Source: Bdellovibrionales bacterium (lineage in GTDB: Bacteria > Bdellovibrionota > Bdellovibrionia > Bdellovibrionales > JAGQZY01). Taken from it: 64,000 nucleotides of DNA. The stretch lies in the NCBI GenBank assembly GCA_041736155.1, contig JBGSUL010000032.1, positions 16,554 to 80,553 of the forward strand. The letters are read 5' to 3'. The translations under genes and the position numbers were made by a program. Shown here one piece after another: positions 15,986 to 58,719 of the stretch (its first letter is position 1; every line of letters starts with the position of its first letter). The notes beneath the pieces are model-generated. The model was not told the origin of the DNA. It did not search any database and worked only from the letters and a program-made list of their open reading frames with translations.

Positions 15986-17197
15986 ATGAAACTCTCCCAC
16001 AAAAAGAAGATCGCCCTCGTCCTTAGTGGGGGTGGTATTAAAGCTGCTGCCTTTCATATCGGTGTTTGCTTAGCCTTAAAAGAAAAAGGATTTAAGTTTG
16101 CCGGCGGGACCAAAGAGGAAGTTTCGGCCCGTTACGGAAGTGATGAACTCACCATAAAATTCTATGTAGGTTCCAGCGCTGGTTCGGTGATTAGCACATT
16201 TCTTGCGGCTGGTTATTCCCTCAATTCGATCATCCATGCTTTTGAACGTGGCTCCACTGAAATTTCTGATGGTTTGAAAACTGAAAAACCTTTCGATGAA
16301 GATCTCAGTCCACTCACCTATCGCAATATCTTTTCTTTGAACACCAAAGAAATGTTACAGATGTTTCCCAACCTGATTAAGAATCGCGGCTCTTCCATCG
16401 TCACCGGTGGCTTTGAAGTTTTGATCAAAAATGGCTTTAAGCTCAATGGACTCTTCTCGACTAAAGGCTTGGGAAAGTATATTCGCGATGAAGTTTGGAA
16501 AAGTGATTCTTTTGCGGATTTGGGTGTGGACCTCTACATTGTGGCCACACAACTCAATCAAAGTAGAAAAGTTATCTTTTGTGCAAAAGATGAAATGTCC
16601 AAGGATCAATCGGTTCTTTATGCCAACTACGCCAGTGTCAGCGATGCGGTTGCCGCTTCTGCAGCTTTACCGCCCGCCTTTTCTCCCTACGCCATTAAAA
16701 ACCGCGATGGTAATGACATTTACTTTTTTGATGGAGAAATTCGCGACACATTATCTTCTCACATCCCCGTGGATCATGGTGCAGACTTGGTCATCGCCAG
16801 TTATTCCATTCAGCCCTATAACTACAACAAAGTGATGGGAAGTCTTCATCAGTATGGAATTCCGGTGATCCTCAACCAGGCCCTTTATCAGGTTGTTCAG
16901 CAAAAAATCGAGAACGCCATTAAGGCCAGAAAATCCATCGAAACTGTCTACAAAGCGGTGGATGGATATTTAAAACAGATAAACATCGCCGATGAACATC
17001 GGCAGAAACTTCTTGAGATCATTACAGAAAGAACAAACTACAAGCCGCAAACGGACTATATTTACATCCATCCACACCCGCAAGACTACCGAACCTTCTT
17101 TGCGGATCATTTTAGTTTGAACCCACAAATTCTCAAAGATACTGTTCAAGCTGGATTTAGGTCAGCCCTCAATGCTTTGAGAAAATGGGATATCTAA
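15986..17197 (+). CDS. Patatin-like phospholipase
   Basis: LVLSGGGIKAAAF is the oxyanion GGGxK, GSSAGS is the GxSxG nucleophile, and FDGEIRD is the DG catalytic Asp. The start is taken at MKLSHKKK, while the track ORF starts at the alternative codon at 15947. Confidence 0.85.
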   Translation: MKLSHKKKIALVLSGGGIKAAAFHIGVCLALKEKGFKFAGGTKEEVSARYGSDELTIKFYVGSSAGSVISTFLAAGYSLNSIIHAFERGSTEISDGLKTEKPFDEDLSPLTYRNIFSLNTKEMLQMFPNLIKNRGSSIVTGGFEVLIKNGFKLNGLFSTKGLGKYIRDEVWKSDSFADLGVDLYIVATQLNQSRKVIFCAKDEMSKDQSVLYANYASVSDAVAASAALPPAFSPYAIKNRDGNDIYFFDGEIRDTLSSHIPVDHGADLVIASYSIQPYNYNKVMGSLHQYGIPVILNQALYQVVQQKIENAIKARKSIETVYKAVDGYLKQINIADEHRQKLLEIITERTNYKPQTDYIYIHPHPQDYRTFFADHFSLNPQILKDTVQAGFRSALNALRKWDI

Positions 17198-17883
17198 CCC
17201 TTTCGACGTTGCCAGCTGTGTTCACCGTTTCCAAATTTTGGTTTTTTACAATAAAGCCACTCAAGGCTTTTCTTTTGTGAATCGTTGCAGCGACCCTTTT
17301 CACCACCCTGGAATGAGGAGCAGATTTTATCCTCGATGTAATCACACGGCAAAAAACGCGGCGACTTCCATTCTGTGCTCGCGAAAGCATAAAAGTTGGC
17401 CGTTCCCCAAAAAATACTATCCCACATTCCCATGGAAAGTCCCTGACTGCCTTTGACCACAATTTGGCTGTTCTTTGGAATATCCAAAGTTAAAAGATAA
17501 CCCTGCACATGCTCTGGATTGCTCATCACCGAGCATGCCGTGTTATCGTAAACGACACTCACACGATTTTTTTTTGCTAGTGGGACGATGTGTTTATCCA
17601 AGTAAGCTAGCGTCCACCAATAATCTAACCAATGCCCCACAAAACCAACTTCAATTTGATCACCTTTAGAAATATTTGGAAGGTGCGACGCTAACGACTC
17701 ATGTGGCTTTCGGTCGACCACAGTTTTGGTAGAACAGGATCGTTGCGCCATCCACATTTGGCAGCCTTCTTTAAAAAAAGCTTTTTGATTTTTCTCCCGG
17801 CCAATTTCGCAAGCGCAATGAGTCGCCGAAAATGCCTGTTTCGAAATAATTATGAAAATAAAAAAAAAGAGAAATCTCCTCAT
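17194..17883 (-). CDS. Secreted Cys-rich hypothetical protein
   Basis: MRRFLFFFIFIIISKQAFSA is a signal peptide. The mature part contains many Cys and Trp residues and no recognisable motif. The start is taken at M17 of track ORF 17194..17931. Confidence 0.55.
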   Translation of the reverse strand: MRRFLFFFIFIIISKQAFSATHCACEIGREKNQKAFFKEGCQMWMAQRSCSTKTVVDRKPHESLASHLPNISKGDQIEVGFVGHWLDYWWTLAYLDKHIVPLAKKNRVSVVYDNTACSVMSNPEHVQGYLLTLDIPKNSQIVVKGSQGLSMGMWDSIFWGTANFYAFASTEWKSPRFLPCDYIEDKICSSFQGGEKGRCNDSQKKSLEWLYCKKPKFGNGEHSWQRRKG

Positions 17884-17983
17884 GGTCCCCACCCCCGTGA
17901 ATTTATTACATCCTTGGGTGGGCGTTATCAAGATCTCAAGGTAACAGCCTGCAATACAAAAAGGGAACTGTTACCTAGAGTTC

Positions 17984-19471
17984 CTAGAGAGAGTAGGACA
18001 CGGCTGTTTGGACAAACTTAAATAATGGTGCGGAGAATATTCCAAAAATAATCATCACCAAAGCCATGACAAGGGCGATCGCTTGCGTCAGATAAGCACT
18101 CGACGAAACTGTCATTGTGCCCCCCTCGTGCATATACATCGTGACGATGGGGCGAAGGTAAAAATAAACACCAATGGCAGAGCCCACCATAGCCATAACC
18201 CCCAGCCAGAAAAACCCTTGATTCATCACTGCGGCGATTAAATAAAATTTGCCGAAGAATCCTAACGTGGGAGGAAGTCCTGCGAGGCTTAATAATAAAA
18301 CAGCCAAAGCAAACGCGGCGAGTGGTGCGCGATACGCAAGGCCCTTAATATCATCAATCAATAAAATACTATCGGCTTTGCTCTCCAATGCTGAAACGAT
18401 GGAGAACGATCCGATGGTCATAAGAACGTAAGTGAGCAGATAAAAAAGTAAACTCGTTGTTCCTTCTTCAGAGGATACACCAAATCCGGCCGCCACTAAA
18501 CCCAAGAGGGCATAACCAGAATGCGCTATGCTCGAGTAAGCCAACATACGCTTAATGTTTTCTTGGCGGAGAGCAGCCAAACTACCACCGATAATCGTGA
18601 GAACCGCTAACCACTGCAGCACATACACAAGATGAGATTCTTCGACGGCATCGGTGTATAAAAAGAGTCTTAAGAAGGCAATAAAACAGGCCAGCTTTAC
18701 TCCCGTGGCCATCAATGTGGTCACTGGCGTCGCGCTCCCTTGATAAACATCGGGTGCCCAGGCATGAAACGGCATCAATGAAACTTTAAATGCCATTCCC
18801 GCAATCAGCAGTCCCATTCCTAATATAAAAATTTTGCTACTTACAAATAGCTCAGCGCTCTTTACACCAATCTCCTGCAACATTACAGTTCCTGTGGATC
18901 CGTAAACAAAGGCAATCCCATAAAGAAAAATAGCCGAGCCCACAGCGCCAAGAACAAAATATTTAAACGCAGCTTCTTTGGAGAGAACTTGTTCTTTACT
19001 CAAGGCGATCAAAATATAAATACTCAATGACATTAATTCGATGGCGATAAATGTAATCAAAAGATGATTGGCCATGGTGACCAACACCATACCCACCACA
19101 GCACTGAGAACGAGAAAAATATGTTCAGAAAACTGATGATCGCGCGTCGCTTTGTTTTCATAAAGCTGCATCAGCACAAAGCCCGCAATAATATAGAGCA
19201 CATACGCCGCCCACACGGCGATGCCGTCAACGATGAGCGCGCCAGAGAACGCTGTGATAAAATTTAATTCAGAAAGACGCCAATAACCACTGACCAAAGA
19301 AATATTTAAACCGGCCGCCGCAACCACGCCGACAATCGCCCACACTAACGAAACAAACGGCGCCATCTCCCGCCCGCGAAAAGCTTTGACGGAAATTGGA
19401 ATCAAACTCGCCAAAAACAAAACAATCAGAGGACTAAGGACTAAAAGATCGGCGGGATTTACGGGCAACAT
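17984..19471 (-). CDS. nuoN: NADH-quinone oxidoreductase subunit N
   Basis: A polytopic antiporter-like protein and the last gene of the nuo string. The start at MLPVNPADLL lies 1 nt after the nuoM stop. Confidence 0.9.
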   Translation of the reverse strand: MLPVNPADLLVLSPLIVLFLASLIPISVKAFRGREMAPFVSLVWAIVGVVAAAGLNISLVSGYWRLSELNFITAFSGALIVDGIAVWAAYVLYIIAGFVLMQLYENKATRDHQFSEHIFLVLSAVVGMVLVTMANHLLITFIAIELMSLSIYILIALSKEQVLSKEAAFKYFVLGAVGSAIFLYGIAFVYGSTGTVMLQEIGVKSAELFVSSKIFILGMGLLIAGMAFKVSLMPFHAWAPDVYQGSATPVTTLMATGVKLACFIAFLRLFLYTDAVEESHLVYVLQWLAVLTIIGGSLAALRQENIKRMLAYSSIAHSGYALLGLVAAGFGVSSEEGTTSLLFYLLTYVLMTIGSFSIVSALESKADSILLIDDIKGLAYRAPLAAFALAVLLLSLAGLPPTLGFFGKFYLIAAVMNQGFFWLGVMAMVGSAIGVYFYLRPIVTMYMHEGGTMTVSSSAYLTQAIALVMALVMIIFGIFSAPLFKFVQTAVSYSL

Positions 19472-19472
19472 A

Positions 19473-21014
19473 TTAGTTATTCTCCTGTGCTGGCTCGGTC
19501 TCTGAACCGTAAATTTTGAGCTGATAATTGTTTTTATTCTCAATGAAATGTCGAATCGACGTTTCGCTGTAGGATAAAAAATGTTGAGGGAAAATCCCCA
19601 TCCAGAAGATCAGAACAACGATGGGCGAAAGCACCAACTTTTCGCGCAGGCTCAGATCGAGCATGCCTTTGTGTTTCACAACTGTTTCTCCAGCTTCGCC
19701 AAAGAAAACTTTTTTCACCATCCACAACATATAGGCTGCGCCAAGGATCACACCCAGAACGGCGACTCCCGCTAAATATTTATTGTAACCATAAGTTCCA
19801 AGGAGAACTAAAAACTCTCCCACAAACCCATTGGTCATCGGAACTGCTATGCTTGAAAAGGTGATGATCAAAAAGAAAATGGCGTAGATAGGCATCGCCT
19901 TGGCGAGACCGCCGTATTTAGCAATTTCGCGTGTATGGGTTCTCTCGTAGATCATACCCACCAAAAGGAATAATCCACCAGTACTCACACCATGCGCAAG
20001 CATTTGATAAAGACCACCTGTCACACCAAAACTATTGAGTACAAATAAACCCACTATCACATAACCCATATGGGAAACTGATGAGTACGCCACCAGTTTT
20101 TTTATGTCGACTTGCACCATGGCCACAAGAGCTCCGTAAATTATACCGATGACACCGACGGCGATAAATAACCATCCCCAGGCCGCTGCCGCTTCAGGAA
20201 AAACGGGGAGAACAAAACGTACAAAACCATACGTTCCCATTTTCAACATCACCCCCGCAAGTATAACTGATCCCGCAGTAGGAGCTTGAACGTGCGCATC
20301 AGGAAGCCACGTGTGCAATGGAAAGACTGGCACTTTGATAGCAAAGGCCACTGCAAACGCAAAGAATAACAGCGTTTGTGGTGTAAAAAAGTCGCCCGCA
20401 ACAAAAGGAATGTTCAGCTGATAAAAATCGAGAACACTGGCGCTATAGTAACCAAGCTGCGCTTTACATTGCAAAATCATGTAAACAATGGCTGCAAGCA
20501 TAAAGACTGAACCGGCCATGGTATAAATAAAAAACTTATAGGTGGCATAGATTCTGTTTTCGCCACCCCAGATTCCAATCATAAAATACATCGGAACAAG
20601 TGAGAGTTCGAAAAACAAATAGAAAAGGACACTGTCGATCGCCAAGAAAGAACCTATCACCGCCGCTTGCAAAACAAACAAAGCAATGTGAAAGCCTTTG
20701 ACGTTTTTCTCAATCGCAGTCCAGCTAGCACCGATCACGAGCGGCGTGAGAAGTGAGGTCAGTAACACCAAAAGAACCGACCAGCCATCGACACCCAAAA
20801 AGTACGAAATCCCATAATCCGGAAGCCAATTGGCATACTCCACCAACTGAAGATCGGCGCTCCCTTTATCAAATTTATTCAGCAGCAATAAACTTTCCGC
20901 AAAAAGGAATAAAGAGCTGAGGAGAGAAAAGCGACGGATCGCTTCGGCAGAATTTACAAAAAGTAAAACTCCAGCAATCATCAACGGCAGTATAATCAAA
21001 CTCGTTAAAAACAT
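19473..21014 (-). CDS. nuoM: NADH-quinone oxidoreductase subunit M
   Basis: 513 aa, antiporter-like, with LHTWLPDAHVQAPTAGSV (NuoM/ND4 signature). Confidence 0.93.
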   Translation of the reverse strand: MFLTSLIILPLMIAGVLLFVNSAEAIRRFSLLSSLFLFAESLLLLNKFDKGSADLQLVEYANWLPDYGISYFLGVDGWSVLLVLLTSLLTPLVIGASWTAIEKNVKGFHIALFVLQAAVIGSFLAIDSVLFYLFFELSLVPMYFMIGIWGGENRIYATYKFFIYTMAGSVFMLAAIVYMILQCKAQLGYYSASVLDFYQLNIPFVAGDFFTPQTLLFFAFAVAFAIKVPVFPLHTWLPDAHVQAPTAGSVILAGVMLKMGTYGFVRFVLPVFPEAAAAWGWLFIAVGVIGIIYGALVAMVQVDIKKLVAYSSVSHMGYVIVGLFVLNSFGVTGGLYQMLAHGVSTGGLFLLVGMIYERTHTREIAKYGGLAKAMPIYAIFFLIITFSSIAVPMTNGFVGEFLVLLGTYGYNKYLAGVAVLGVILGAAYMLWMVKKVFFGEAGETVVKHKGMLDLSLREKLVLSPIVVLIFWMGIFPQHFLSYSETSIRHFIENKNNYQLKIYGSETEPAQENN

Positions 21015-21021
21015 TTCTTCC

Positions 21022-22953
21022 TCACATCATTAAAAGTAAGAGTGTTGCCACTACGCCCACCAACATCATCAAAGTGTAGGTTTGCAACTGACCCGTTTGT
21101 AGGGATCGTAAGCCTTCGCCAGCGCTGCGAATAAAATCTGTCAGTTTATATGTGGCGAGATCCACCAAGCCAATATCCACCTTCACCCATAAAAGGCGCG
21201 ACGCCTTGACGAGGGGCTGTATAAGCACTGCTTGATAAATTTCATCGACATAATATTTGTTGGCGATGAGCTCATGAAGGGGGCGAAGCTTTTCGGACAA
21301 GGCCTTCGCCACCGATGGCTTCGTCGCATACATATAGTAGGCAATTCCCGCGGAAACAGTGGCGAGGAGAATAGTGATCACCATGAGCAGCATTTCAAGA
21401 GAAAGTGATCCGTGTTCCAATCCTGGAATTGGGCGAATCACCGGCTCTAACCAATGCTCTAAAATGTTTGATGGGTGTCCTGGCAAAAATGTGGCGAGTC
21501 CGTGAGGAACTCCCAACCATCCTGCAAAAACAGAAAGCACTGCAAGTACGACCAGTGGAATATACATGGTCGCTGGCGCTTCGTGAGGATGAATGTCTTT
21601 AGGCACGCGCGAAGCACCCCAAAAAGTCATCGCCATTAAACGTGTCATGTAAAAGGCGGTACACGTTGCGGTGATCAATGCCACAAACCACAGTGCGGGA
21701 CTGCCCAGCGGACTGTGAAACGACATCCATAAAATTTCATCTTTACTAAAAAATCCCGAGAAGAAGGGTGCGCCAATAATCGCCAACCACCCGCAAACAA
21801 AAGTCCAATGCGTGACAGGAAGATATTTTTTCAGTCCCCCCATTTTACGCATGTCTTGTTCTTCGTGCATGGCATGGATCACGCTACCCGAACCCAAAAA
21901 CATGAGCGCTTTAAAAAAAGCGTGAGTCATCAAATGGAAAAAGCCGGCGCCGAACGCGCCCACACCCACGGCGAGAAACATGTAGCCCAGTTGCGAAACT
22001 GTGGAGTACGCGAGAACTTTTTTAATATCATTTTGTGCAATACCAATCGTTGCCGCAAACAAAGCTGTGGCTGCACCAACAATGGCCACCACGGCCATGG
22101 CGTTGGGAGCTAAGAGAAACAACGGATTTAGACGGATGATCATGTAGACACCCGCCGTCACCATGGTCGCCGCGTGGATCAAAGCAGAAACAGGTGTTGG
22201 GCCCGCCATCGCATCAGGAAGCCAAACATACAGTGGAATTTGCGCTGATTTTCCCATGGCTCCAATAAAAAGAAATAAACACGCCAAAGTCATCGCGCCC
22301 GTCCATGCCATTTCGGTGGTCGCTGGCAAGGCCGTGATCAGCTGTGCAAAATCTATTGTTCCAAAGGTAAAAAACAACGTGAAAATCCCTAAAAGAAAAC
22401 CCGCATCACCAATACGATTGGTAATAAATGCTTTCATCCCCGCTGCGGCTTTTTCTTTATCAGAAAACCAGAAGCCGATCAGGAGATACGAACAGAGCCC
22501 TACGCCTTCCCAACCAACAAACATGAGGACGAGGTTGGCTCCCAGTACAAGAAGTAACATGTTAAAAACAAAAAAATTGAGATAGCTAAAATATTTGGAA
22601 GGTCGCTCGTCGTGCGACATATAACCGATACTGAACAAATGAATCAGCGATCCGACACCGGTTATGATCATCACCATCAAAATCGAAAGCGGATCGATCA
22701 CAAAAGCGACCGGAATTTCTAATCCCCCTAAAGACAACCACTGAAAGTATTCAACGCGTATGTGTCGTTGGTCGGGTGCAAAATTTAAAAGTTGCGTAAA
22801 AAAGGCCAACGCCGAAGCAAAAGAAACTGCCACTGCGGATGTGGCCACAGCTCCTGCCAAAATTCCGTTGTGACTGCGAAAGCGCAATCCATTAAAAAGA
22901 AATCCGGCCACCGGCGCTAACAATAATATGGCTAATAGAACTTGATTCGACAT
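21022..22953 (-). CDS. nuoL: NADH-quinone oxidoreductase subunit L
   Basis: 643 aa with WLPDAMAGPTPVSALIHAATMVTAG (NuoL/ND5 signature) and a long C-terminal lateral-helix region. Confidence 0.95.
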   Translation of the reverse strand: MSNQVLLAILLLAPVAGFLFNGLRFRSHNGILAGAVATSAVAVSFASALAFFTQLLNFAPDQRHIRVEYFQWLSLGGLEIPVAFVIDPLSILMVMIITGVGSLIHLFSIGYMSHDERPSKYFSYLNFFVFNMLLLVLGANLVLMFVGWEGVGLCSYLLIGFWFSDKEKAAAGMKAFITNRIGDAGFLLGIFTLFFTFGTIDFAQLITALPATTEMAWTGAMTLACLFLFIGAMGKSAQIPLYVWLPDAMAGPTPVSALIHAATMVTAGVYMIIRLNPLFLLAPNAMAVVAIVGAATALFAATIGIAQNDIKKVLAYSTVSQLGYMFLAVGVGAFGAGFFHLMTHAFFKALMFLGSGSVIHAMHEEQDMRKMGGLKKYLPVTHWTFVCGWLAIIGAPFFSGFFSKDEILWMSFHSPLGSPALWFVALITATCTAFYMTRLMAMTFWGASRVPKDIHPHEAPATMYIPLVVLAVLSVFAGWLGVPHGLATFLPGHPSNILEHWLEPVIRPIPGLEHGSLSLEMLLMVITILLATVSAGIAYYMYATKPSVAKALSEKLRPLHELIANKYYVDEIYQAVLIQPLVKASRLLWVKVDIGLVDLATYKLTDFIRSAGEGLRSLQTGQLQTYTLMMLVGVVATLLLLMM

Positions 22954-22959
22954 TAAAAC

Positions 22960-23277
22960 CTACCCACGCAAGTGCTCAAAAAAGCTGATGTTCAATTCTT
23001 TGAACTTTTTAAATAACATCACCGCCAAAGCAAGACCGATACTCGCCTCTGCGGCTGCGATCGCCATCACAAAAAGGACAATCACCTGACCCTCTAAATT
23101 CTGTTGAAAATAAGAAAAGGTCACAAAAGAAAGATTCACAGCATTTAACATCAACTCAATGGACATGAGCATAACTATCATATTTCGGCGCAAGAGAATG
23201 CCGGTCAATCCCAGGCAAAATAAAATAGCCGATACAATTAAGTAGTGTTCCTGACCGATCATCAGACTAGCGCTCAT
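22960..23277 (-). CDS. nuoK: NADH-quinone oxidoreductase subunit K
   Basis: About 100 aa with 3 TM segments. SIELMLNAVNLSFV and AAAEASIGLA are NuoK/ND4L motifs. The start could instead be M6 (23262). Confidence 0.92.
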   Translation of the reverse strand: MSASLMIGQEHYLIVSAILFCLGLTGILLRRNMIVMLMSIELMLNAVNLSFVTFSYFQQNLEGQVIVLFVMAIAAAEASIGLALAVMLFKKFKELNISFFEHLRG

Positions 23278-23779
23278 GTGTTCCTCCTCGGATACGCGTC
23301 AGAGCCACAATCCCTACGGGAATGACCAACAACATAATCCCCAAAAGTTCAAAGGCGAGAACGTACTTTGTAAATAACAATCGTGCGATATCCACCACTT
23401 CTGTAGCCTGCTGAGCCACGAGAATTTTGGTCGACATGGGCGTGCGCAAAATAATCGATGTGAGAAGTCCGGCGAAAACCCCGACGGTGAGACCTTTAAA
23501 AAGCGCAGAAATATTTCCACCACTAAACTTCTCTTCATCTTTATTGATGTCGATCAACATCATCACAAGAACAAACAAGACCATGACGGCACCGGCGTAG
23601 ACCATGATTTGCACGGCTCCGATAAACGGTGCTTGTAACAAAAAGAATAATCCCGCTATGCCCAACATCGATAATACCAAGTAAAGGGCGCTCATCAGAG
23701 GATTTTCATTCATCACAACACCGACCGCCGTTAAAACAGTGACCGCTGCTAAAAAATAAAAAAGAATAATTTCAGCCAT
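23267..23779 (-). CDS. nuoJ: NADH-quinone oxidoreductase subunit J
   Basis: MAEIILFYFLAAVTVLTAVGVVMNENPLMSALYLVLSML is typical of NuoJ/ND6. The start overlaps the nuoH stop (TAATG). The track ORF extends to 23863. Confidence 0.9.
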   Translation of the reverse strand: MAEIILFYFLAAVTVLTAVGVVMNENPLMSALYLVLSMLGIAGLFFLLQAPFIGAVQIMVYAGAVMVLFVLVMMLIDINKDEEKFSGGNISALFKGLTVGVFAGLLTSIILRTPMSTKILVAQQATEVVDIARLLFTKYVLAFELLGIMLLVIPVGIVALTRIRGGTHER

Positions 23780-24939
23780 TACAACACTCCTCCGCCACCT
23801 ACCAGAATTAAAAAGGCGGTGATTAAGACGTTCGCTAAGGCCCATGGCAACATTGTTTTCCAACCCAAATCCATGAGTTGATCATAACGAAAGCGCGGCA
23901 AAGTCCAACGAACCCAAATAAAAACCCATAGGAAAAAAAGAACTTTCAGGAGGAACACTAGGAACAGCGCCATGGCCGCCATCACATTCCCCATATTATA
24001 AGAAGTAAACGCCCCGCGCACCGCTGTCGTCAGCGAGTCCGATAGGTGAAATGGTAATTCATAACCACCAAAATAAAATGTCGTCATCACCGCCGAGGCC
24101 ACCATCATGTGACCGTATTCCCCGATATAGAACATCAGCATTTTAAGACCACCGTACTCTGTGTGGTATCCCGCCACCAATTCGCCTTCGGCTTCGGGTA
24201 AGTCAAACGGTAGACGATTTGTCTCGGCAAAAGCGGCTGTGGCAAATAACAAAAATCCCAACGGTTGATAAAAAATTCCCCAGTTTGGCAAAAAGGGAAC
24301 TACCAATTCACGACCGAAAAAATAAAAATGCAGTGGACCTTTTTGTAACTCAATCATTTGTGAAAAATTGAGCGTTTGATAAAGCATCAGCAAGCCCACC
24401 AAAGAAAGACCCATAGCTAGCTCATAACTGACCATCTGTGCACTGGCGCGAAGAGCGCCAAATAACGAATACTTATTATTAGAACCCCAACCTGCGAGCA
24501 AAAGCGCATAAGCTCCCAAAGATGAAATCGCTAAAATAAAAAGAATGCCGATGTTGAGATCATAGCTTTGGAATTTGAATGTATAGGGTCCCCAATGACT
24601 ACCGAACATATCAAATGGTTGAATTTCAATAGGCATTGAGAGCGGGATTCCGCCAAAGGCAATGGCTCCCGGAACAAGCGCCAGTACTGGAGCTGCATAA
24701 TAAAGAAGGGCGTGACTGCTCGGTGGCACAAATTCTTCTTTAAACAAAAATTTAACTGCATCCGCGAGAAGTTGTGTCAGCCCCAATGGTCCGACCCGAT
24801 TGGGGCCAAAACGATTTTGAATAAACGCTGAGCCACGTCTCTCTACCCAAACAAGAATGGGCACAAGCTGCACCATCAGCAAAAAAATCAGGAGCATCTT
24901 AACAACGTTTACCGTAATTTCAAAAACATCCGATCCCAT
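23779..24939 (-). CDS. nuoH: NADH-quinone oxidoreductase subunit H
   Basis: VERRGSAFIQNRFGPNRVGPLGLTQLLADAVK and ETNRLPFDLPEAEGELVAGYHTEYGG are NuoH/ND1 signatures. Confidence 0.95.
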   Translation of the reverse strand: MGSDVFEITVNVVKMLLIFLLMVQLVPILVWVERRGSAFIQNRFGPNRVGPLGLTQLLADAVKFLFKEEFVPPSSHALLYYAAPVLALVPGAIAFGGIPLSMPIEIQPFDMFGSHWGPYTFKFQSYDLNIGILFILAISSLGAYALLLAGWGSNNKYSLFGALRASAQMVSYELAMGLSLVGLLMLYQTLNFSQMIELQKGPLHFYFFGRELVVPFLPNWGIFYQPLGFLLFATAAFAETNRLPFDLPEAEGELVAGYHTEYGGLKMLMFYIGEYGHMMVASAVMTTFYFGGYELPFHLSDSLTTAVRGAFTSYNMGNVMAAMALFLVFLLKVLFFLWVFIWVRWTLPRFRYDQLMDLGWKTMLPWALANVLITAFLILVGGGGVL

Positions 24940-24940
24940 C

Positions 24941-25306
24941 TTAATCCCACTCCAAAGCTTTCGCTTTAATTTCCCACATCAATCCAAAAACGAAGAGGCC
25001 GATAAAAACAAAAAGTTCCCAAAATAAAAAAGCGCCCTGTCCTTTGTCGACAAATTCGCGATAGACCACCGCCCATGGGTACAAAAAAAGAATTTCTATA
25101 TCGAACATAATGAACAGAATGGCGGTGAGATAAAAACGAATGGATACGTTGGTTTTTTTATTTTCTTGCCCTGGCAAACCACACTCATAGGGCATATATT
25201 TTGCGGCCGTTTTTTTCTTTTTAGGACCGACAAGCGATGCCCCATACACCAATAAGGTGCCAAAAGTTGCGACAATGAGAGCGAGCACAAGCACTGGTAA
25301 AATCAT
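24941..25306 (-). CDS. nuoA: NADH-quinone oxidoreductase subunit A
   Basis: YECGLPG...RFYLTAILFIMFDIEILFLYPWA is the NuoA/ND3 signature. The start is taken at MILPVLVL. Its stop lies 1 nt before the nuoH ATG. Confidence 0.92.
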   Translation of the reverse strand: MILPVLVLALIVATFGTLLVYGASLVGPKKKKTAAKYMPYECGLPGQENKKTNVSIRFYLTAILFIMFDIEILFLYPWAVVYREFVDKGQGAFLFWELFVFIGLFVFGLMWEIKAKALEWD

Positions 25307-25566
25307 CCGATGTTCCTCTTGTTTGCTGTTTCTCGTGCTTCGACAATTTGAAACACGCGGACACGCTTTATAATGTAAGACCAATCTAATTAACTATAGG
25401 AAGTTGCTACAAATTTCGAGCTCTTTTTCTATTCACAACCTTCATGATTGGCTGCGTAACAAACGCTTCAAAGGACGCTCTTTTCCGAGCGTATTTTGCA
25501 ACTCTCTTTTCCACCCTCTCTTTTGCCACTGTCTTATTGTGCGAACTTGTGAGAAACGTGAGGCTC

Positions 25567-28500
25567 ATGGCTTTTTTAAATTTTGATTCGACTCTGCAAC
25601 AAAACCTAGGGGCCCAACCCTTACGAGTTATCTCCTCTGATCCCCATGTGAGTGCGGCACTTCTTTTGGGTCAATCTTTAAGTGCGCAAAAATCCTCTCA
25701 TAATCTTGTTATTACTAAAGATTTAGGCTCTGCCCAAAAATTGATCTCCTATTTGGATCTTTTTGGAAGTTTTTTGAATCTACGACCCGCTCCGGTTTTT
25801 TTGTTACCGCCCCACGATATTTCTCCGTATTCTGGTCTCTACAGTTCACGCCCTGCCATGCTGCAGCGTTTGCGCTGGTTGTATTATGCTTCTATGCCAC
25901 CGCCCGGAGCTATCTTCATTGCTCCCCTGAAAGCGCTGGCGCAGTTTACTCTGTCGCAAGATCTTCTTCTTAATTCTGCTCAGTTTTTTAAAAAGGGTGA
26001 CTCGCTGCCTGAAAATTGGGCTTTTTATTTATCCACCTTAGGCTACAAAAGTGTACCCGTGGTCGAAGATGCCGGCACTTTTGCTTTGCGTGGGGGAATT
26101 CTCGATATTTTTTCCCCTGCCCATGACTTACCTTTGCGGGTCGAACTTTTTGGGGATCAGATCGAATCCTTGCGATGGTTTCATCCACAAACACAAACTT
26201 CCATCGAAGAAGCCACAGAGTTTACCCTTCTTCCAGCACACGAAATTCTTTTTTCCGAAGATCGCATCTTGCGCTGCTGCCAAAAATTGAGCGAGCGCGA
26301 AAGCGAAACTGATATCACGTCTCTTCAATCACAAATTCGCAATCAAACATATTTTGACGGCATTGAGTATTTGGCACCACTTTTTTACAAAGAAAAAACT
26401 TTTGCTATCGATTATCTTCCACCAAACACCGTCGTCTGGTCCCCCGATGCCATTGCCGCTGATGCCCAATGGACTACCGACTTTCACCATCTTCGTGAAG
26501 AGTATCAGCAGTACAAAACCCATATTCCCACGCCCGATGAACTTTACTGCTCTCCCGAAGCTTTACAGCAAAAACTTCCAACAAAAAATAAAATTGAATT
26601 TGAAATTCTCGACACGGCCGACGGCGATCCTCGTCACGTTTTAGAATTCTCCTCGCGAAATATTCCACCCGCCAAGACCAACACCTTTAACGAAAAGGTG
26701 GATTTTCTTATTCAAAAAGTTGAGGAATGGAAAAACAGCCGCGCCACGGTCTTTTTGTGTGGCAACTCCGAAACACAATTTAAAAGACTCGAATTGGCTT
26801 TCCAAGAGCATCAGCTTTCCCTGAAATGGATCGATCACAAATCAGATCTTTCGACTTTGCGTGAAACACAAAATAAAAACACAGTTTACTTTTTACACCA
26901 CACTTTTGACACGAGTTTTCAGTCCCTGAACGAAGCTTTAGTTTTTGTCGGCGTTGAACACTTTTTAAAAAAGAGCGAGGCGCGCAGCAGCTCCGTCAAA
27001 GCCACAATGGATCAAGCCGAAGCTTTGAGTTTTTCCGAACTCCGCGAAGGCGATCCCATTGTTCACAATCAGCACGGCGTGGCGCTTTACATGGGTTTGC
27101 GGGTCATGAATATCAGTGGAGTCGAGGCAGAATTTCTTGAATTAAAATTTAAAGATAATGATAAACTTTTTTTACCGATTTATCGCCTCAGCCAAGTTCA
27201 TAAATATTCCGGGGCGGGAAACCATCATATTCTCGATAAATTGGGTGGCAAACAGTGGGAAAAAACCAAAGCCAAAGTACAGACTCGCCTTCGTGAGGTA
27301 GCAAATGAGCTGGTGCAGCTTTATGCCAAAAGGCGAACCCTCACGCGCCCAGCATATGAAGTGCAAACTTCGGAGATGCAACAGTTCGAAGACGCCTTTC
27401 CCTATGAAGAAACCGCGGATCAACTTCGTGCGCACGAAGATATTAAAAAGGATTTATCCAACGAACGCCCCATGGATCGTTTGATCTGTGGAGATGTTGG
27501 TTTTGGCAAAACTGAAGTGGCCATGCGCGCCGCCTTTCTTGTGGCTTCTCAGCGCCGGCAAGTGGCTATTTTAGCTCCGACAACCATTCTGACATTTCAG
27601 CATATGGAAACTTTCAAAAAGCGCTTCTCAGGTTGGCCACTGAAGATCGCTGTTCTCAATCGTTTCATCAGTACGACCGACGTGCAAAAAATTCTTAAGG
27701 AAGTCAAAGAGGGCGCGGTGGATATTCTGATCGGCACCCATCGTCTTTTGAGTAGTGATGTTCAGTTTACCAATCTGGGCCTACTCGTCATTGATGAAGA
27801 ACAAAAATTCGGTGTAAAACACAAAGAAAAAATTCGTTACATGAAAAACACCGTGGACACTCTCTCGATGTCGGCGACACCTATTCCGCGCACACTCAAC
27901 ATGAGTCTACTTGGTTTACGCGATCTCAGTCTTATTAATACTCCACCACATGATCGGTTGCCCACCCGTACTTTTGTTTCGAAATTTGACATGAGTGTGA
28001 TTCGAAAAAATGTTCTCTCTGAAATCAAGCGAGGCGGCCAAGTCTTTTTTCTGCACAATCGGGTACAAAGTATTTATGCTTTGGCCGACGAACTCCGCGA
28101 AAATCTTCCCGGGGTGCGTATGGCTGTGGCCCATGGGCAAATGGAAGAACACGAGTTGGAAAAAGCCATTATTGCTTTTTTTAATAAAGAAATCGATATG
28201 CTCGTGTGCACAACGATCATCGAATCGGGGATGGACATCCCCAATGCCAACACCATGTTCGTCGACCAAGCGCAAGCCTTGGGGCTCAGTCAACTTTATC
28301 AGTTGCGCGGTCGCGTGGGGCGCGGCAAACAGCGGGCCTTCTGCTATTTACTGATTCCGCGCAGTGGAACGTTGGATGACATTGCCAAAGAACGCTTACG
28401 CATTCTTCAACAAAATTCGGCCTTGGGGAGCGGAATCCAAATTGCGCAATATGATCTCGAACTTCGCGGCGCTGGCACTCTGCTCGGCGAAGAGCAGTCT

Positions 28501-31415: not shown

Positions 31416-31826
31416 TTAATGAATATCTTTTTGCACGGTTTTTATGCGCGCTTCTGCACGCATAAACTTTCTTTGATACTTTTCAAATTCGTCGAAGGTC
31501 ACATTAGCTAACTTCTCAAGAGATTCTGTGCGTGCTTGTTCGGCACGCTTCAAATCAATCTCTCCCGGTGCTTCTGCTGTCTCCGCCAGAATGTTCACTT
31601 GCCCTTCGGGTGTGACTTCGCAGTAACCCCAGCTAATGGCCACAGATTTTAAATCCGCTGCTCCTTCGAGTTTGTATCTAAGTACGCCCTCCGAAAGAGT
31701 AGTAATGAGGGGAGCATGGCCGGGAAGAATTTCTAGTTCGCCGCGAAATGCAGGAACAAAAACCTCTTTCAGGGGAGCACCCTCAACGATTTTTTTCTGT
31801 GGTGTCACTAACGTTAAGCTAAACAT
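31416..31826 (-). CDS. atpC: F1 ATP synthase subunit epsilon
   Basis: 136 aa. LTLVTPQKKIVEG...VPAFRGELEILPGHAPLIT is the epsilon signature. It follows atpD. Confidence 0.93.
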   Translation of the reverse strand: MFSLTLVTPQKKIVEGAPLKEVFVPAFRGELEILPGHAPLITTLSEGVLRYKLEGAADLKSVAISWGYCEVTPEGQVNILAETAEAPGEIDLKRAEQARTESLEKLANVTFDEFEKYQRKFMRAEARIKTVQKDIH

Positions 31827-31835
31827 TCGTCCTCT

Positions 31836-34144
<2,309 letters not shown>

Positions 34145-34153
34145 TGCTCTCTC

Positions 34154-35677
34154 TTATTTTGCTGAAGGTTCAAAAATGGATTTGAACTCTTTCAATGCAT
34201 CTACGAGTTGCGTTTTCATTTCATCGCTAATTTTTTGTTCTTTAACGATCGTCTCAAACATTTTGCTGTATTTTTGTTTCATGAAAGTGAGCATTTCTTT
34301 TTCGTAGCGGCGCATATCTTTTGTTGGGTACGCATCCACATAACCGTTGGTCGCTGCAAAAATAGAAAGAACTTGATCAGTCACTTCGTAAGGCGTGTAT
34401 TGAGATTGCTTGAGAAGCTCAACCAGTCTCTCACCACGCGCTAACTGTGATTTAGACGCCGGATCAAGATCCGATGCAAACGCAGCAAAGGCTTCAAGAT
34501 CGCGATACTGAGCCAAAGAAAGTTTTAATGTTCCTGCAACTTGCTTGACTGCTTTTGTTTGCGCGGCTCCACCCACACGCGACACAGACTTACCCACAGA
34601 AATCGCCGGGCGAATCCCTTTATAGAAGAGATCGGCCTCGAGGAAGATCTGACCATCGGTAATCGAGATCACGTTTGTTGGAATGTACGCAGAAATATCA
34701 CCCGCTTGTGTTTCGATGATTGGCAAAGCTGTTAAAGAACCACCACCATCGGCTGCCGACATTTTTGCTGCGCGCTCAAGAAGGCGTGAGTGAACATAGA
34801 AAACGTCGCCAGGGAAAGCTTCGCGACCTGGAGGACGGCGAAGAAGAAGAGATAACTGACGATACGCTTGAGCTTGTTTAGTTAAATCATCATAAACGAT
34901 CAACGCGTGGCCACCATTATCGCGATAGTACTCAGCCATGGCTGTTCCCGCATAAGGTGCTAAGTATTGAAGGGGAGCAGGAGCACTTGCACCGGCAGCA
35001 ATCACTGTTGTGTACTCAAGGGCGCCAGAAGAACGAAGTTTTTCCACAACCAAAGAAATGGTCGATTGTTTTTGTCCAATGGCTACGTAGAAACATTTAA
35101 CGTTTTTACCTTTTTGATTGATGATCGTATCGATAGCAATGGCTGTCTTACCAGTCTGACGATCACCAATGATTAATTCCCGTTGACCACGTCCGATTGG
35201 AATCATGGAATCAATCGCTTTAATTCCAGTTTGTAGCGGCTCGTGAACAGGTTGTCTTTTCACGATACCTGGAGCTTTAACGTCAATCACACGATTTTCT
35301 TTAGAAACGATGGGACCCTTGCCATCAATCGGGCGGCCAAGAACATCGACAACGCGACCAAGAAGGCCGTCGCCCACAGGGACTTCGACGATGCGTTTCG
35401 TTCTCTTAACGAGATCACCTTCGCGAATCGTTCTATCTTCACCGAAAATAACGATACCGGCAGAATCTTTCTCGAGGTTCAAAACCATTCCTGTGATTTG
35501 CCCTGGGAACTCAACAAGTTCTCCAGCCATGGCAGACTCAAGACCAAATACGCGCGCAACACCATCTCCCACTGAAAGGACAGTTCCTGTCTCGCGAACT
35601 TCAAGTTTATTTGTATAACCTTTGATTTGTTCTTTTAAAATGCGGCTGATTTCATCGGCGCGAATACGTGTTTCCAT
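34154..35677 (-). CDS. atpA: F1 ATP synthase subunit alpha
   Basis: Walker A motif GDRQTGKTA. At 507 aa it has typical alpha subunit length and order. Confidence 0.98.
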
Positions 35678-36217
35678 TTAATTTGAACTCCTCTTTAATG
35701 ACTCATTAAGCTTTTGCAAATTTGATTTTAAACTGTCTTCAATAATATAACTGCCCACTCGCGCTTCGATCCCGCCCATGAGGTCGGGGGACGTTTTGTA
35801 ATCGAGTTGCACTTTAAAATTTAATTTTTTTTCTATGGCTTCTTGCAGATTCTTTTTCTCGGTGTCAGTCAGCGCGATCGCCGACACAACTTCACCTTTT
35901 TTCACGCCTTTACCACCCGAACAACTCTCTTTAAATTCTTCGACGATTTGCGAGAGAAACCCAATGCGCCCGTTTCGCGCGAGAAGTTTGATAAAGTCCA
36001 TCAAGTCCGCATCAGCTTTTCCTGCCAGCGCCGCCTCGACAGCCGCTTCTTTTTCTTGTGAAGTAAAAAGGGGAGATTTAAAGAACTGAATTGTTTCAGG
36101 ATCATTAAAGACGGGTGCCAAAGCATCTATTTCATCGACAAAACGAGTGGCTTTTCCTGATTCATTGGCGATTTCATAAAAAGCATTGGCATAAGATTGA
36201 ACAACTTGTGTACTCAT
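35678..36217 (-). CDS. atpH: F1 ATP synthase subunit delta (OSCP)
   Basis: 179 aa. The assignment rests on its position between atpF and atpA, plus a YANAFYEIA-type N-terminus. Confidence 0.88.
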   Translation of the reverse strand: MSTQVVQSYANAFYEIANESGKATRFVDEIDALAPVFNDPETIQFFKSPLFTSQEKEAAVEAALAGKADADLMDFIKLLARNGRIGFLSQIVEEFKESCSGGKGVKKGEVVSAIALTDTEKKNLQEAIEKKLNFKVQLDYKTSPDLMGGIEARVGSYIIEDSLKSNLQKLNESLKRSSN

Positions 36218-36783
36218 ACGGTTGCCCCCTCAATGCGTTTTTGAACCCGTTGATTCAATTTTTGTTTTTCAGCGGCGTCGATAGATTGGAACTGCTGTCC
36301 CGCAGCGGCCACCGATAGTTCGAGAGCTTCTTGGCGAAGTTTTTCGATCATCTTCTGTTGATCCGTTGCCATTTGTGCATCGACATCTTTAGAAATCTTC
36401 ACCGCTTGCATTTTTGATTTTTCAATTTCACTCAGATATAATTTTTCGGCCTCTACCTTGGCCTCTTTAAGGCTTTGTTCGCTAGTTGTTTGCAGCTGTT
36501 GTGAGCGACGAAGGAGATCCGCTTTTTTATTTTCCAATTCCAAGCGCGCTTTTTTGGTTTCTTCCGCCAAACGATGGAACTCCGTCAGACGGGCATCAAA
36601 AACGGCTTTGACTTTATCTTTTCCAAACCAGTAAAGAATGCCGATAAAAATGGTGACATTGATTGCTTGATACCAAACAACCGTAGGGACTCCCGCATCA
36701 TGGCCGCCGCCATGACCACCAGAACTTGCTGACGCCAATTCTATAGACAAATCAGTGAATAAAAGAAGAGCGGTTTCTATCAT
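36214..36783 (-). CDS. atpF: Fo ATP synthase subunit b
   Basis: It has a single N-terminal TM segment followed by a long charged coiled coil. It overlaps both neighbouring genes by 4 nt. Confidence 0.85.
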   Translation of the reverse strand: MIETALLLFTDLSIELASASSGGHGGGHDAGVPTVVWYQAINVTIFIGILYWFGKDKVKAVFDARLTEFHRLAEETKKARLELENKKADLLRRSQQLQTTSEQSLKEAKVEAEKLYLSEIEKSKMQAVKISKDVDAQMATDQQKMIEKLRQEALELSVAAAGQQFQSIDAAEKQKLNQRVQKRIEGATV

Positions 36784-37232
36784 GGTTCTAGCAACCTTTG
36801 TTGAATGGCCTGGCCCAGCTCCGGGACCAAAGTCTTAAGCTGATCTTTTGCGCCGAGGTAGGCGCCCTCAATATCTTTTTTGCCCAAAGCTAGTTTTTCT
36901 TGAGCACCCTTTTGGGCCTCTGAAACTATGACGGCCGTTTCTTTCTGAGCCTTGGAGCGTTTTTCATCAGATGCGATTTTAATTTTTTCGTTGAGAACAC
37001 GGGCCTCTTGTGAAAACTGGCCCTCGAGTTCGTCGATCTCTTGTTGGAGTTCTTTAGCGACTCCGGAACCACCCACTGTTCTTCGGCGACGTTCTTCGTA
37101 CGCCGCAAGGTATGGCGAAAATATAAAATATTTTAAAAAAACAAAGGCCACGATGAAGATCGCAAACTGTGCAAAAACAGTTTCATTGACCCCTAGACCG
37201 GTAAGGATATTTAGAACTGCACCCATTTTCAT
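36780..37232 (-). CDS. atpF2: Fo ATP synthase subunit b' (second b-type subunit)
   Basis: It has a single TM segment (FAQFAIFIVAFVFLKYFIF) followed by a coiled coil. The start is taken at M36 of track ORF 36780..37337, because the upstream part would overlap the bactofilin gene. Confidence 0.8.
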   Translation of the reverse strand: MKMGAVLNILTGLGVNETVFAQFAIFIVAFVFLKYFIFSPYLAAYEERRRRTVGGSGVAKELQQEIDELEGQFSQEARVLNEKIKIASDEKRSKAQKETAVIVSEAQKGAQEKLALGKKDIEGAYLGAKDQLKTLVPELGQAIQQRLLEP

Positions 37233-37266
37233 CCAATTGTAAATAATGATGTTCGGGTATTGAGTA

Positions 37267-37632
37267 TTAGTTACTGGTGCGAGGGTCAAGTTTAAAGTTG
37301 GTCGAGGACGACCCGTCAAAAAGGACGCCCTCTTCAATCTTAAGATTCGGGACCGAAACGGTCCCTTTGAATTTGGCGGGGGCCAGCATGGTCACGCGTT
37401 TTTCAGCCTTCAACTGGCCAAAGAACTGGCCCTTGATTGTGGCTTCTTTCACACAGACATCTCCCTCGACCACCGCGGTCTCATCAATAATTAGGACACC
37501 TTCGGAAATGATTTCCCCTTTGAAGTGCCCACCAATTTTGAGGGCCCCCACAAAAGAAAGTTTTCCTTCAAAGTAAGTTCCTTCTTGGAGATGACCCATT
37601 ACCGGCGTTCGGGAAATTTCTGGTGTGCTCAC
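37267..37632 (-). CDS. Bactofilin family cytoskeletal protein
   Basis: 121 aa with the repetitive beta-helical pattern FEGKLSFVGALKIGGHFKGEIISEGVLIIDETAVVEGDVCVKEATIKGQFFGQL..VTM...KFKGTV, typical of DUF583/bactofilin. Its GTG start overlaps the parB stop (GTGA). Confidence 0.85.
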   Translation of the reverse strand: MSTPEISRTPVMGHLQEGTYFEGKLSFVGALKIGGHFKGEIISEGVLIIDETAVVEGDVCVKEATIKGQFFGQLKAEKRVTMLAPAKFKGTVSVPNLKIEEGVLFDGSSSTNFKLDPRTSN

Positions 37633-39444: not shown

Positions 39445-39465
39445 CTCTCCTCCATGTTGAGAATT

Positions 39466-39624
39466 GGTCTGTTCTTCACTTGCAAAGCCTCTTTTAAGAG
39501 AAATTTTTGCGCTGACTCCGCGTTGCTCGTCGTCTCGTTAGCGCTTTGCTAGCGTTTCCTCCTCGCGCCTCGATTCAACCCAAAACTTTCTCTTAAAAGA
39601 GGCTTTGCAAGTGAAGAACAGACC
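39466..39624. repeat. Perfect 38-bp inverted repeat with 83-nt spacer (159-bp element; MITE-like or giant hairpin)
   Basis: The left arm 39466-39503 (GGTCTGTTCTTCACTTGCAAAGCCTCTTTTAAGAGAAA) is the exact reverse complement of 39587-39624. I checked it base by base. The left arm starts 22 nt upstream of the parA ATG. Confidence 0.9.
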
Positions 39625-39667
39625 TAGGTAATCTCTTTTTTCTAAATATTTCAACTGATAATGCCGA

Positions 39668-39683
39668 TGTTCCACGTGGAACA
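39668..39683. promoter_or_regulatory. parS centromere site 1 (perfect palindrome)
   Basis: TGTTCCACGTGGAACA. The consensus parS is TGTTNCACGTGAAACA. The flanking A and T extend the palindrome to 18 bp. Its last base is the A of the ATG of the 39683 ORF. Confidence 0.85.
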
Positions 39684-58176: not shown

Positions 58177-58214
58177 TTTATAATTTAAAGCAGTTCTAAA
58201 GAAGGGAGCTCGAG

Positions 58215-58591: not shown

Positions 58592-58643
58592 GAGAGTGAA
58601 AGGCGATCGTCCCAGACCATCGTCTTAGCACTCTCTTTATCTT
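58592..58643 (+). terminator. Rho-independent terminator after atpE
   Basis: An extended imperfect stem forms from GAGAGTG-A-AAGGCGAT...ATCGTCTT-AG-CACTCTC. It is followed by TTTATCTT. Confidence 0.6.
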
Positions 58644-58719
58644 GTCTCACCCTAAGACAAATTGTGATTTAAAAAGAGACGCCACTAAGGTTTTTACCTG
58701 TGACTCCGATAAGATACCT

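Follow-up and report, generated by a model that had tools for sequence, protein, structure and literature searches.

Complex I of Bdellovibrio bacteriovorus HD100 is encoded at two separate places on the chromosome. The complex I rule of iCH457, a genome-scale model of this strain, consists of 13 single-copy genes in two loci (PMC7529429 supplement). The membrane locus contains Bd3892, Bd3891, Bd3890, Bd3889, Bd3888, Bd3887 and Bd3886 (nuoA, H, J, K, L, M and N, respectively), and the peripheral locus contains Bd3086, Bd3085, Bd3084, Bd3083, Bd3081 and Bd3080 (PMC7529429). In an HD100 proteome table the latter six are NuoB, NuoC/D, NuoE, NuoF, NuoG and NuoI, in this order (PMC12546842 supplement), and their UniProt accessions are consecutive (Q6MIR4-Q6MIR9). 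NuoB, C/D, E, F, G and I, as well as NuoH, L and M, were detected throughout the predatory cycle (PMC12546842). The consecutive locus tags suggest that the gene orders are nuoN-M-L-K-J-H-A and nuoI-G-F-E-CD-B. The HD100 locus tags gave no match when sought in the main texts of papers, and the sole mention in a 2013 transcriptome supplement is that of bd3891 as a qPCR primer target.

This type of gene organization has been noticed before. The 'split' nuo arrangement is defined, with Bdellovibrio as the example, in Degli Esposti 2015 (PMC4758237). According to a 2026 comparative study, all of the Bdellovibrionota examined have the nuoAHJKLMN cluster, and its chromosomal site is the same in each (PMC13147790). 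Both loci are also present in the reference genome annotation. The split arrangement is already known and is ordinary for the phylum. The novelty that an earlier note on the present DNA had implied does not hold, because the arrangement has been published.

The membrane-arm operon

The window, i.e. the whole 64-kb stretch of Bdellovibrionales DNA analysed here, contains the same seven genes as the HD100 membrane locus. The window comes from a different species, being part of a Bdellovibrionaceae/Pseudobdellovibrionaceae MAG, and a 245-aa cysteine-rich ORF, absent from every related locus compared, lies 3' of nuoN. The seven nuo ORFs are all on the minus strand and exactly fill positions 17984-25306, running from 25306 down to 17984 in the order nuoA-H-J-K-L-M-N.

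The first gene of the operon, nuoA (24941..25306), encodes a protein of 121 aa that matches Pfam Oxidored_q4 (1.3e-29). It is followed by nuoH (23779..24939, 386 aa; NADHdh, 5.3e-107), whose product would dock the peripheral arm and form the quinone cavity and the E-channel. The next two genes are nuoJ (23267..23779, 170 aa; Oxidored_q3, 3.2e-34) and nuoK (22960..23277, 105 aa; Oxidored_q2, 5.8e-30). The three antiporter-like subunits match Proton_antipo_M and are encoded by nuoL (21022..22953, 643 aa; 8e-86), nuoM (19473..21014, 513 aa; 3e-78) and the last gene, nuoN (17984..19471, 495 aa; 2.3e-69). NuoL additionally matches Proton_antipo_N and Proton_antipo_C. In the mechanical ORF list nuoA, nuoJ and nuoN are longer and start with TTG; the ATG starts, which agree with the gene calls of homologous loci, were adopted.

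The genes are tightly packed. There is a 1-nt gap between nuoA and nuoH, a 1-nt overlap between nuoH and nuoJ (TAATG), an 11-nt overlap between nuoJ and nuoK, a 6-nt gap between nuoK and nuoL, a 7-nt gap between nuoL and nuoM, and a 1-nt gap between the nuoM stop and the nuoN ATG. The earlier note had described seven tightly coupled membrane subunits in canonical relative order, and the ORF coordinates and the Pfam matches agree with this description, including the three junctions that it had specified (A/H, H/J and M/N). A GAGG motif is located 7 nt 5' of the nuoA ATG. The 137-nt intergenic region upstream (25307..25443), which separates nuoA from the divergently transcribed mfd gene, presumably houses the operon promoter. 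A scan of positions 17000-25600 for consensus promoters and terminators gave no excess of sites over shuffled sequence, and no promoter was therefore assigned. An Rfam scan of the whole window gave zero matches.

No trace of nuoB, C, D, E, F, G or I was found anywhere in the 64-kb window by tblastn or Pfam. For tblastn, the window was searched in all six reading frames with 27 queries, comprising E. coli NuoB, CD, E, F, G and I and their homologues from six other lineages. The best match (E = 0.011, at 43.6 kb) is noise, and the best within the operon has an E value of 0.08. Pfam recognized no further nuo gene among the window ORFs of at least 150 aa that are not inside a longer gene. Thus the claims that every peripheral-arm gene is missing from the locus and that remnants of nuoB, C, D or I are absent have both stood up to the search, and the junctions, between an 11-nt overlap and a 7-nt gap, leave no room for hidden ORFs, as had been proposed.

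Subunit identity and functional residues

All seven products exceed the curated Pfam cut-offs by far. Furthermore, four of them clear the curated NCBIfam cut-offs for Nuo subunits: NuoK (equivalog NF004320, 121 bits vs 57), NuoL (equivalog NF005141, 762 bits vs 556; TIGR01974, 753 vs 407.5), NuoM (TIGR01972 NDH_I_M, 574 bits vs 264) and NuoN (TIGR01770 NDH_I_N, 393 bits vs 332.6). NuoH, NuoA and NuoJ are above their Pfam cut-offs, yet fall below the lineage-specific NCBIfam equivalog cut-offs (295.6 bits vs 305 for NuoH with NF004741). The NF005141 alignment covers NuoL end to end (residues 6-642 vs positions 4-610 of the 615 in the model), so that the C-terminal extension, consisting of the lateral helix and the last transmembrane helix, appears to be present. 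The MrpA-type models score 232-295 bits vs cut-offs of 920-1117, the best being 295 vs 937 on NuoL, and the Hyf models score 209-261 bits vs 430-667. The scores of the FpoH, FpoK and FpoL models are also far below their cut-offs. The operon flanks contain neither MrpE, MrpF or MrpG nor a hydrogenase or F420 input module. By these profile scores the seven products are bona fide complex I subunits of the Nuo type, and not of the Mrp, Hyf or Fpo type.

The products were aligned to the E. coli subunits and compared at 38 positions that are taken to be functionally important and were located in the E. coli sequences. Residues at 36 of these positions are conserved. The two that differ are in NuoL (E. 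coli D563, here K591) and NuoJ (E. coli E80, here N89). NuoA retains D69 and E71 (E. coli D79 and E81), NuoJ retains Y61 (Y59) and NuoK retains E41 and E77 (E36 and E72). In the antiporter-like subunits, E149, D183, K235, H340, H344, K348, K404 and D405 of NuoL, E136, K227, K258, H315, H341 and E400 of NuoM, and E145, K170, K229, H236, K259 and K408 of NuoN are kept. All 11 residues checked in NuoH, which belong to the quinone cavity, the E-channel and the interface with the peripheral arm, are conserved: E33, R34, D60, E68, E173, D246, E249, E253, E261, R349 and R351 correspond to E36, R37, D63, E71, E157, D213, E216, E220, E228, R291 and R293 of E. coli. Eight of the 11 are located in two cytoplasmic loops that, going by the solved structures, face the quinone cavity and NuoB/D. 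As far as the alignments tell, the proton-channel and quinone-site residues are intact in the seven products except for the two positions mentioned.

With high probability, the locus encodes the membrane arm of an ordinary proton-pumping complex I, the genes of which are sorted by structural arm into two operons. To judge from its relative HD100, a second operon with the remaining subunits very probably lies elsewhere in this genome, and we infer that its products join those of the present operon in a single enzyme. The membrane arm of this enzyme would consist of NuoA, H, J, K, L, M and N, with NuoH, A, J and K making up the E-channel and the NuoL lateral helix clamping the three antiporter-like pumps. 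The Q and N modules, supplied by the second chromosomal operon (nuoB-CD-E-F-G-I in HD100), would dock on NuoH and NuoA, and electrons would pass from NADH to quinone. A cleanly split complex I was the first of two explanations offered in the earlier note. It is supported by the single-copy genes of HD100 in two loci, by the detection of products of both, and by the retained residues in the NuoH loops.

The other explanation offered was a pairing of the membrane arm with some other redox module, which could be hydrogenase-like, formate-linked, ferredoxin-dependent or F420-dependent. Fpo, NDH-1, Mbh and FHL all combine complex-I-like membrane modules with differing electron-input modules, and the window contains no peripheral-arm gene in its 64 kb. 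The solved chains closest to NuoH, found as PDB sequence matches, are NdhA (6hum_A, 1.6e-65), M. smegmatis 8e9g_H and E. coli 7nyh_H, and the best of these matches are NdhA chains of the ferredoxin-dependent cyanobacterial and chloroplast NDH-1. Nevertheless, such pairing is very unlikely. There is no support for it, and the subunits are Nuo-type, with the Fpo and Hyf models far below their cut-offs. No candidate module adjoins the operon in about 60 related loci, where mfd, lon and genes for a GH3 glycosidase, a patatin-like lipase and ATP synthase surround it. Furthermore, the standard NuoB-CD-E-F-G-I set of HD100 would otherwise have no membrane arm.

It is also conceivable that the seven proteins act alone, without a redox module, as an Mrp-like cation/proton antiporter or a proton leak. 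NuoL, M and N share homology with MrpA and MrpD, although the matches are weaker, and the partial nuo operons of actinomycetes have been suggested, though not shown, to serve in pumping (PMC6676996). This possibility is extremely improbable and was rejected: NuoH and NuoA are present, the NuoH residues that were checked are kept, MrpE, F and G are missing, and the Mrp models reach only one third of their cut-offs. To our knowledge, NuoH and NuoA have no role in known complex I beyond the quinone site and docking of the peripheral arm.

Conservation of the locus in Bdellovibrionota

A scan of species genomes with NuoH peptide patterns yielded 80 loci with 10-kb flanks. About 60 loci from Bdellovibrionales/Bdellovibrionia were compared. 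The A-H-J-K-L-M-N order is found in all of these approximately 60 Bdellovibrionota loci, including those of the cultured Bdellovibrio sp. HCB117 and Pseudobdellovibrio sp. HCB154, and none of them has B, CD, E, F, G or I within 10 kb. In most of the loci the neighbourhood is the same as well: ATP synthase genes, a GH3 glycosidase gene and mfd are on one side, with mfd and nuoA divergent, and genes for a patatin-like lipase and lon follow on the other, converging on the operon. The window spans oriC, and its nuo operon is near oriC, with mfd and the ATP synthase operon next to it. Because the operon and its surroundings have been kept while NuoH identity drops to 60%, the comparison points to long-term purifying selection and not to decay. 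A degenerate paralogue or pseudogene cluster was rejected in view of the intact functional residues and the conservation of the operon in about 60 loci. An assembly artefact was rejected because complete chromosomes have the identical arrangement.

NuoH of the window is 75-76% identical to the proteins of the nearest MAGs and 60-66% identical to those of the two cultured Bdellovibrio/Pseudobdellovibrio genomes in the scan; HD100 is a relative that belongs to a different species. A rough neighbour-joining tree places the protein within a single Bdellovibrionota group. The named top protein matches, among those listed, are from Bdellovibrionaceae or Bdellovibrionales, and an exact match to the protein was found only on a 2.3-kb read-assembly contig.

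Some bacteria have more than one membrane arm, and the seven-gene operon might likewise be an additional arm beside a complete nuoA-N operon, either redundant, or swapping on a shared peripheral arm, or serving specialised conditions. Peredibacter is reported, in the 2026 study, to have nuoAHJKLMN together with a complete 14-gene operon, the two sets being 37.5-41.5% identical (PMC13147790). Additional nuoAHJKLMN operons occur in Salinispora, Streptomyces and Kocuria (PMC6676996), and two MAGs outside the phylum (L061 and L064) have tandem membrane-only sets. An additional arm is unlikely in the present case, however. HD100 lists each subunit once, and its peripheral locus lacks membrane genes. 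Each Bdellovibrionales genome in the scan, including two complete chromosomes, has one NuoH locus, with the reservation that the peptide patterns could miss a paralogue of 40% identity. The lineage-wide conservation and the intact residues are as expected of a sole membrane arm.

Because Peredibacter is reported with both the seven-gene cluster and the complete operon, a simple one-to-one pairing does not extend to the whole phylum. This coexistence also hints that the phylum-wide membrane operon may have stayed apart from the NuoB-CD-E-F-G-I operon because it is used independently of it, so that the two would not be a simple one-to-one split. Such independent use is quite improbable. The membrane-arm proteins might then, for instance, be produced or assembled in another phase of predatory life, or might be shared among several peripheral or redox modules by arm swapping.

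The split complex I of these bacteria is a tidy natural case in which the genes are divided precisely along the boundary between the arms. As both operons are expressed in HD100, Bdellovibrio could suit studies of how a cell balances and joins two arms that are separately encoded. The reason for which lineages with a complete second operon retain the nuoAHJKLMN cluster is of wider interest.

Comparison with known systems

In E. coli the complex I genes form a single operon, nuoA-B-CD-E-F-G-H-I-J-K-L-M-N (structures such as 7nyh). The membrane subunits are orthologous to those of the window (28-46% identity) and are encoded in the same relative order, A…H…J-K-L-M-N, whereas the window operon lacks the six peripheral-arm genes. 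The window NuoH, 44% identical to its E. coli counterpart, is 61 aa longer (386 vs 325 aa), which bears out the earlier remark that it is somewhat long. The extra length is due to three insertions (residues 108-126, 204-220 and 299-323), all of which are longest in Bdellovibrionota and appear to sit in periplasmic loops.

The marine actinomycetes Salinispora, Streptomyces and Kocuria also have a single operon with these seven membrane-arm genes and no peripheral-arm genes, but their partial operons are extra copies that accompany a complete nuo operon and are present in some strains only (PMC6676996). The window operon, in contrast, appears to be the sole membrane arm, judging from HD100, and is lineage-wide. 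In cyanobacteria and chloroplasts the NDH-1 complex is likewise a single complex-I-type enzyme encoded by several loci. Cyanobacterial ndh clusters mix subunits of the two arms (e.g. ndhA-I-G-E and ndhC-K-J), and NuoEFG are lacking. In Bdellovibrio, however, the division coincides exactly with the boundary between the two arms, and HD100 does have NuoEFG.

The membrane-arm operon and its surroundings

The nuo operon occupies positions 17984-25306 on the minus strand. ORF and Pfam analyses agree with the earlier note that it consists of seven membrane-arm genes in the order A-H-J-K-L-M-N: nuoA (24941-25306, 121 aa), nuoH (23779-24939, 386 aa), nuoJ (23267-23779, 170 aa), nuoK (22960-23277, 105 aa), nuoL (21022-22953, 643 aa), nuoM (19473-21014, 513 aa) and nuoN (17984-19471, 495 aa). 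The starts are ATG codons in agreement with gene calls on homologous contigs. NuoA and nuoH are separated by 1 nt, nuoH and nuoJ overlap by 1 nt in the motif TAATG, nuoJ and nuoK overlap by 11 nt, and gaps of 6, 7 and 1 nt follow nuoK, nuoL and nuoM, respectively. The A/H, H/J and M/N junctions match their previous description.

The peripheral-arm genes, noted before as missing from the locus, are absent from the whole 64 kb. A six-frame tblastn search with 27 peripheral-arm proteins (E. coli NuoB, CD, E, F, G and I, and homologs from six other lineages) gave nothing significant, the top match being at 43.6 kb with E = 0.011. Pfam likewise identified no further nuo gene among the remaining large ORFs scanned in the window.

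The plus-strand AT skew is strongly positive (0.22-0.25) at 18001-24000, coinciding exactly with the operon, where T makes up 34% of the sense (minus) strand, in keeping with very hydrophobic gene products. This bias probably also accounts for two long antisense ORFs (21808-22113 and 22163-22585). A 245-aa ORF (17194-17931, minus strand), 52 nt downstream of nuoN and on the same strand, is cysteine-rich, has an N-terminus resembling a signal peptide and lacks a Pfam match. It probably lies outside the operon, because it has no homolog in about 60 related nuo loci.

The window includes the replication origin (about 46300-47150, flanks 37629-56115), as judged from the flanking genes and a cumulative GC-skew minimum near 47 kb. 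The genes dnaA-dnaN-recF-gyrB-gyrA are to its right on the plus strand, and those for YidC, an R3H protein, MnmE, MnmG, RsmG, ParA and ParB are to its left on the minus strand. The ATP synthase genes likewise form two operons, one on either side of oriC: atpF'-F-H-A-G-D-C (31416-37337, minus strand) and a plus-strand operon (56899-58577), in which two small membrane ORFs precede atpB (a subunit, 57487-58176) and atpE (c subunit, 58215-58577, with an N-terminal extension). Immediately after atpE, a 613-aa ORF (58642-60483, plus strand) has a low-complexity middle part rich in lysine and serine and no significant Pfam match. In most of the related loci, the F1/stator operon lies close to that for the nuo membrane arm.

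Identity of the seven subunits

Each product belongs to the expected complex I family (Pfam E-values 1e-29 to 1e-107). Among NCBIfam models, NuoL matches its equivalog end to end with 762 bits (cut-off 556), NuoM matches NDH_I_M with 574 (264), NuoN matches NDH_I_N with 393 (333) and NuoK scores 121 (57). NuoH, NuoA and NuoJ, which pass Pfam, fall slightly to well below lineage-specific equivalog cut-offs. The Mrp, Hyf and Fpo models reach a mere fraction of their cut-offs with the window subunits. The solved chains nearest to NuoH in sequence (6hum_A, 8e9g_H, 7nyh_H and 4he8_H) all belong to genuine complex I or NDH-1, as NuoH, ND1 or NdhA.

The proteins are 28-46% identical to their E. coli K-12 orthologs, taken from the annotated nuo operon. 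Functionally important residues were located in the E. coli sequences, and 36 of these 38 are conserved: NuoA D69 and E71, all 11 tested charged residues of NuoH (among them those of cytoplasmic loops TM1-2 and TM5-6), NuoJ Y61, NuoK E41 and E77, and the Glu/Lys/His series of NuoL, NuoM and NuoN. The exceptions are E. coli NuoL D563, replaced by K591, and NuoJ E80, replaced by N89.

NuoH is indeed somewhat long, exceeding E. coli NuoH by 61 residues, which form three insertions (108-126, 204-220 and 299-323). These are longest in Bdellovibrionota, where NuoH has 376-409 residues; NuoH proteins of other lineages carry shorter insertions there. In the NuoH/Nqo8/ND1 topology the TM1-2, 3-4, 5-6 and 7-8 loops are cytoplasmic. 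By this topology, the insertions would belong to the periplasmic TM2-3, TM4-5 and TM6-7 loops, remote from the surface where the peripheral arm docks.

The earlier note's suggestion that the membrane arm pairs with a different redox module has no positive support, nor has a stand-alone antiporter role for the seven proteins. Both run counter to the subunits' Nuo-type identity, to the conservation of the tested NuoH residues and to a gene neighborhood that is unremarkable. The former is very improbable and the latter even more so.

Conservation in Bdellovibrionota

The best protein matches of NuoH are from MAGs named Bdellovibrionaceae or Bdellovibrionales, and one of them, encoded on an NCBI contig of 255,794 bp, is identical to it. 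Two relatives with 69-76% NuoH identity have the identical seven-gene set between mfd and patatin/lon. A scan of species-representative genomes yielded 80 loci, in which nuo genes were mapped by blastp against E. coli and window proteins. All of the about 60 Bdellovibrionales/Bdellovibrionia loci, among them the complete chromosomes of Bdellovibrio sp. HCB117 and Pseudobdellovibrio sp. HCB154, contain A-H-J-K-L-M-N as far as each contig extends, and none has B, CD, E, F, G or I within 10 kb. Most have the same neighbors: on one side mfd, divergent from nuoA, followed by GH3 and ATP synthase, and on the other patatin, convergent with nuoN, followed by lon. Their NuoH proteins form one group in a rough neighbor-joining tree. 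The arrangement is stable and selected across the lineage. Deletion or assembly artefact was rejected as its cause, since the loci are alike, complete chromosomes included. In three related MAG loci (L043, L040 and L057), nuoL, nuoM or nuoJ is split into two or three consecutive ORF fragments; in view of the assemblies they come from, frameshift errors, and not real pseudogenes, are the probable explanation.

Incomplete operons also occur elsewhere. Two MAGs outside Bdellovibrionota, labeled 'delta proteobacterium' (L061, 2079-16873, on a 2.98-Mb contig) and 'Proteobacteria bacterium LLD_334' (L064, 2-10033), each contain two tandem membrane-arm-only sets, and in L061 A-H-J-K-L-M-N is present twice. 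The flanks retrieved for them contain no peripheral-arm genes. In a rough tree, the nearest outgroups of Bdellovibrionota NuoH include the second copy from L061 and the copy from L064. Further incomplete operons among NuoH relatives (L068, 6123-16840; L072, 6125-12298; L080, 3731-16994; L074, 7308-13362) include A-E-F-G-H-J-K-L-M-N in Thermoanaerobaculia (N module present, no B, C, D or I), A-C-D-F-G-H-J-K-L-M-N in an Eisenbacteria MAG (no B or I) and A-C-D-E-H-J-K-N in one uncultured bacterium. Several lineages seem to encode Q-module genes, nuoB and nuoI above all, separately.

The probable partner operon and known systems

The split arrangement of the lineage is already known. A 'split' type of nuo arrangement, exemplified by Bdellovibrio, was defined in 2015 (PMC4758237), and a 2026 comparative study places nuoAHJKLMN at one and the same chromosomal site in every member of Bdellovibrionota examined (PMC13147790). 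For the reference species, Bdellovibrio bacteriovorus HD100, the iCH457 metabolic model has a single gene rule for the proton-pumping NADH dehydrogenase, in which each of 13 genes appears once: Bd3892, Bd3086, Bd3085, Bd3084, Bd3083, Bd3081, Bd3080, Bd3891, Bd3890, Bd3889, Bd3886, Bd3887 and Bd3888 (PMC7529429, supplementary file 7). The second locus is named in a 2025 quantitative proteome (PMC12546842, supplementary file 3): Bd3086 is NuoB (Q6MIR4), Bd3085 NuoC/D (Q6MIR5), Bd3084 NuoE (Q6MIR6), Bd3083 NuoF (Q6MIR7), Bd3081 NuoG (Q6MIR8) and Bd3080 NuoI (Q6MIR9). Bd3891, Bd3888 and Bd3887 are NuoH, NuoL and NuoM, and abundances are given for these nine proteins at every predation time point (PMC12546842). 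The membrane-arm and peripheral-arm operons of HD100 are thus distinct, separated by about 800 locus tags, and both are expressed. The six peripheral-arm genes would be contiguous, judging from their consecutive UniProt accessions.

By analogy with HD100, the earlier note's proposal of a split complex I, with the Q and N modules encoded elsewhere, very probably holds: the evidence best supports an ordinary complex I with genes sorted by arm into two operons. NuoA, H, J, K, L, M and N would form the proton-pumping membrane arm, and NuoB-CD-E-F-G-I, from the second operon, would dock onto NuoH/NuoA. The main rival, that the genome also has a complete nuo operon and the seven genes encode an additional membrane arm, is unlikely. 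It has a precedent in Peredibacter, which has a complete 14-gene operon besides a seven-gene cluster, with only 37.5-41.5% identity between them (PMC13147790). The nuoAHJKLMN operons of marine actinomycetes are likewise membrane-only; there, they are extra copies (PMC6676996).
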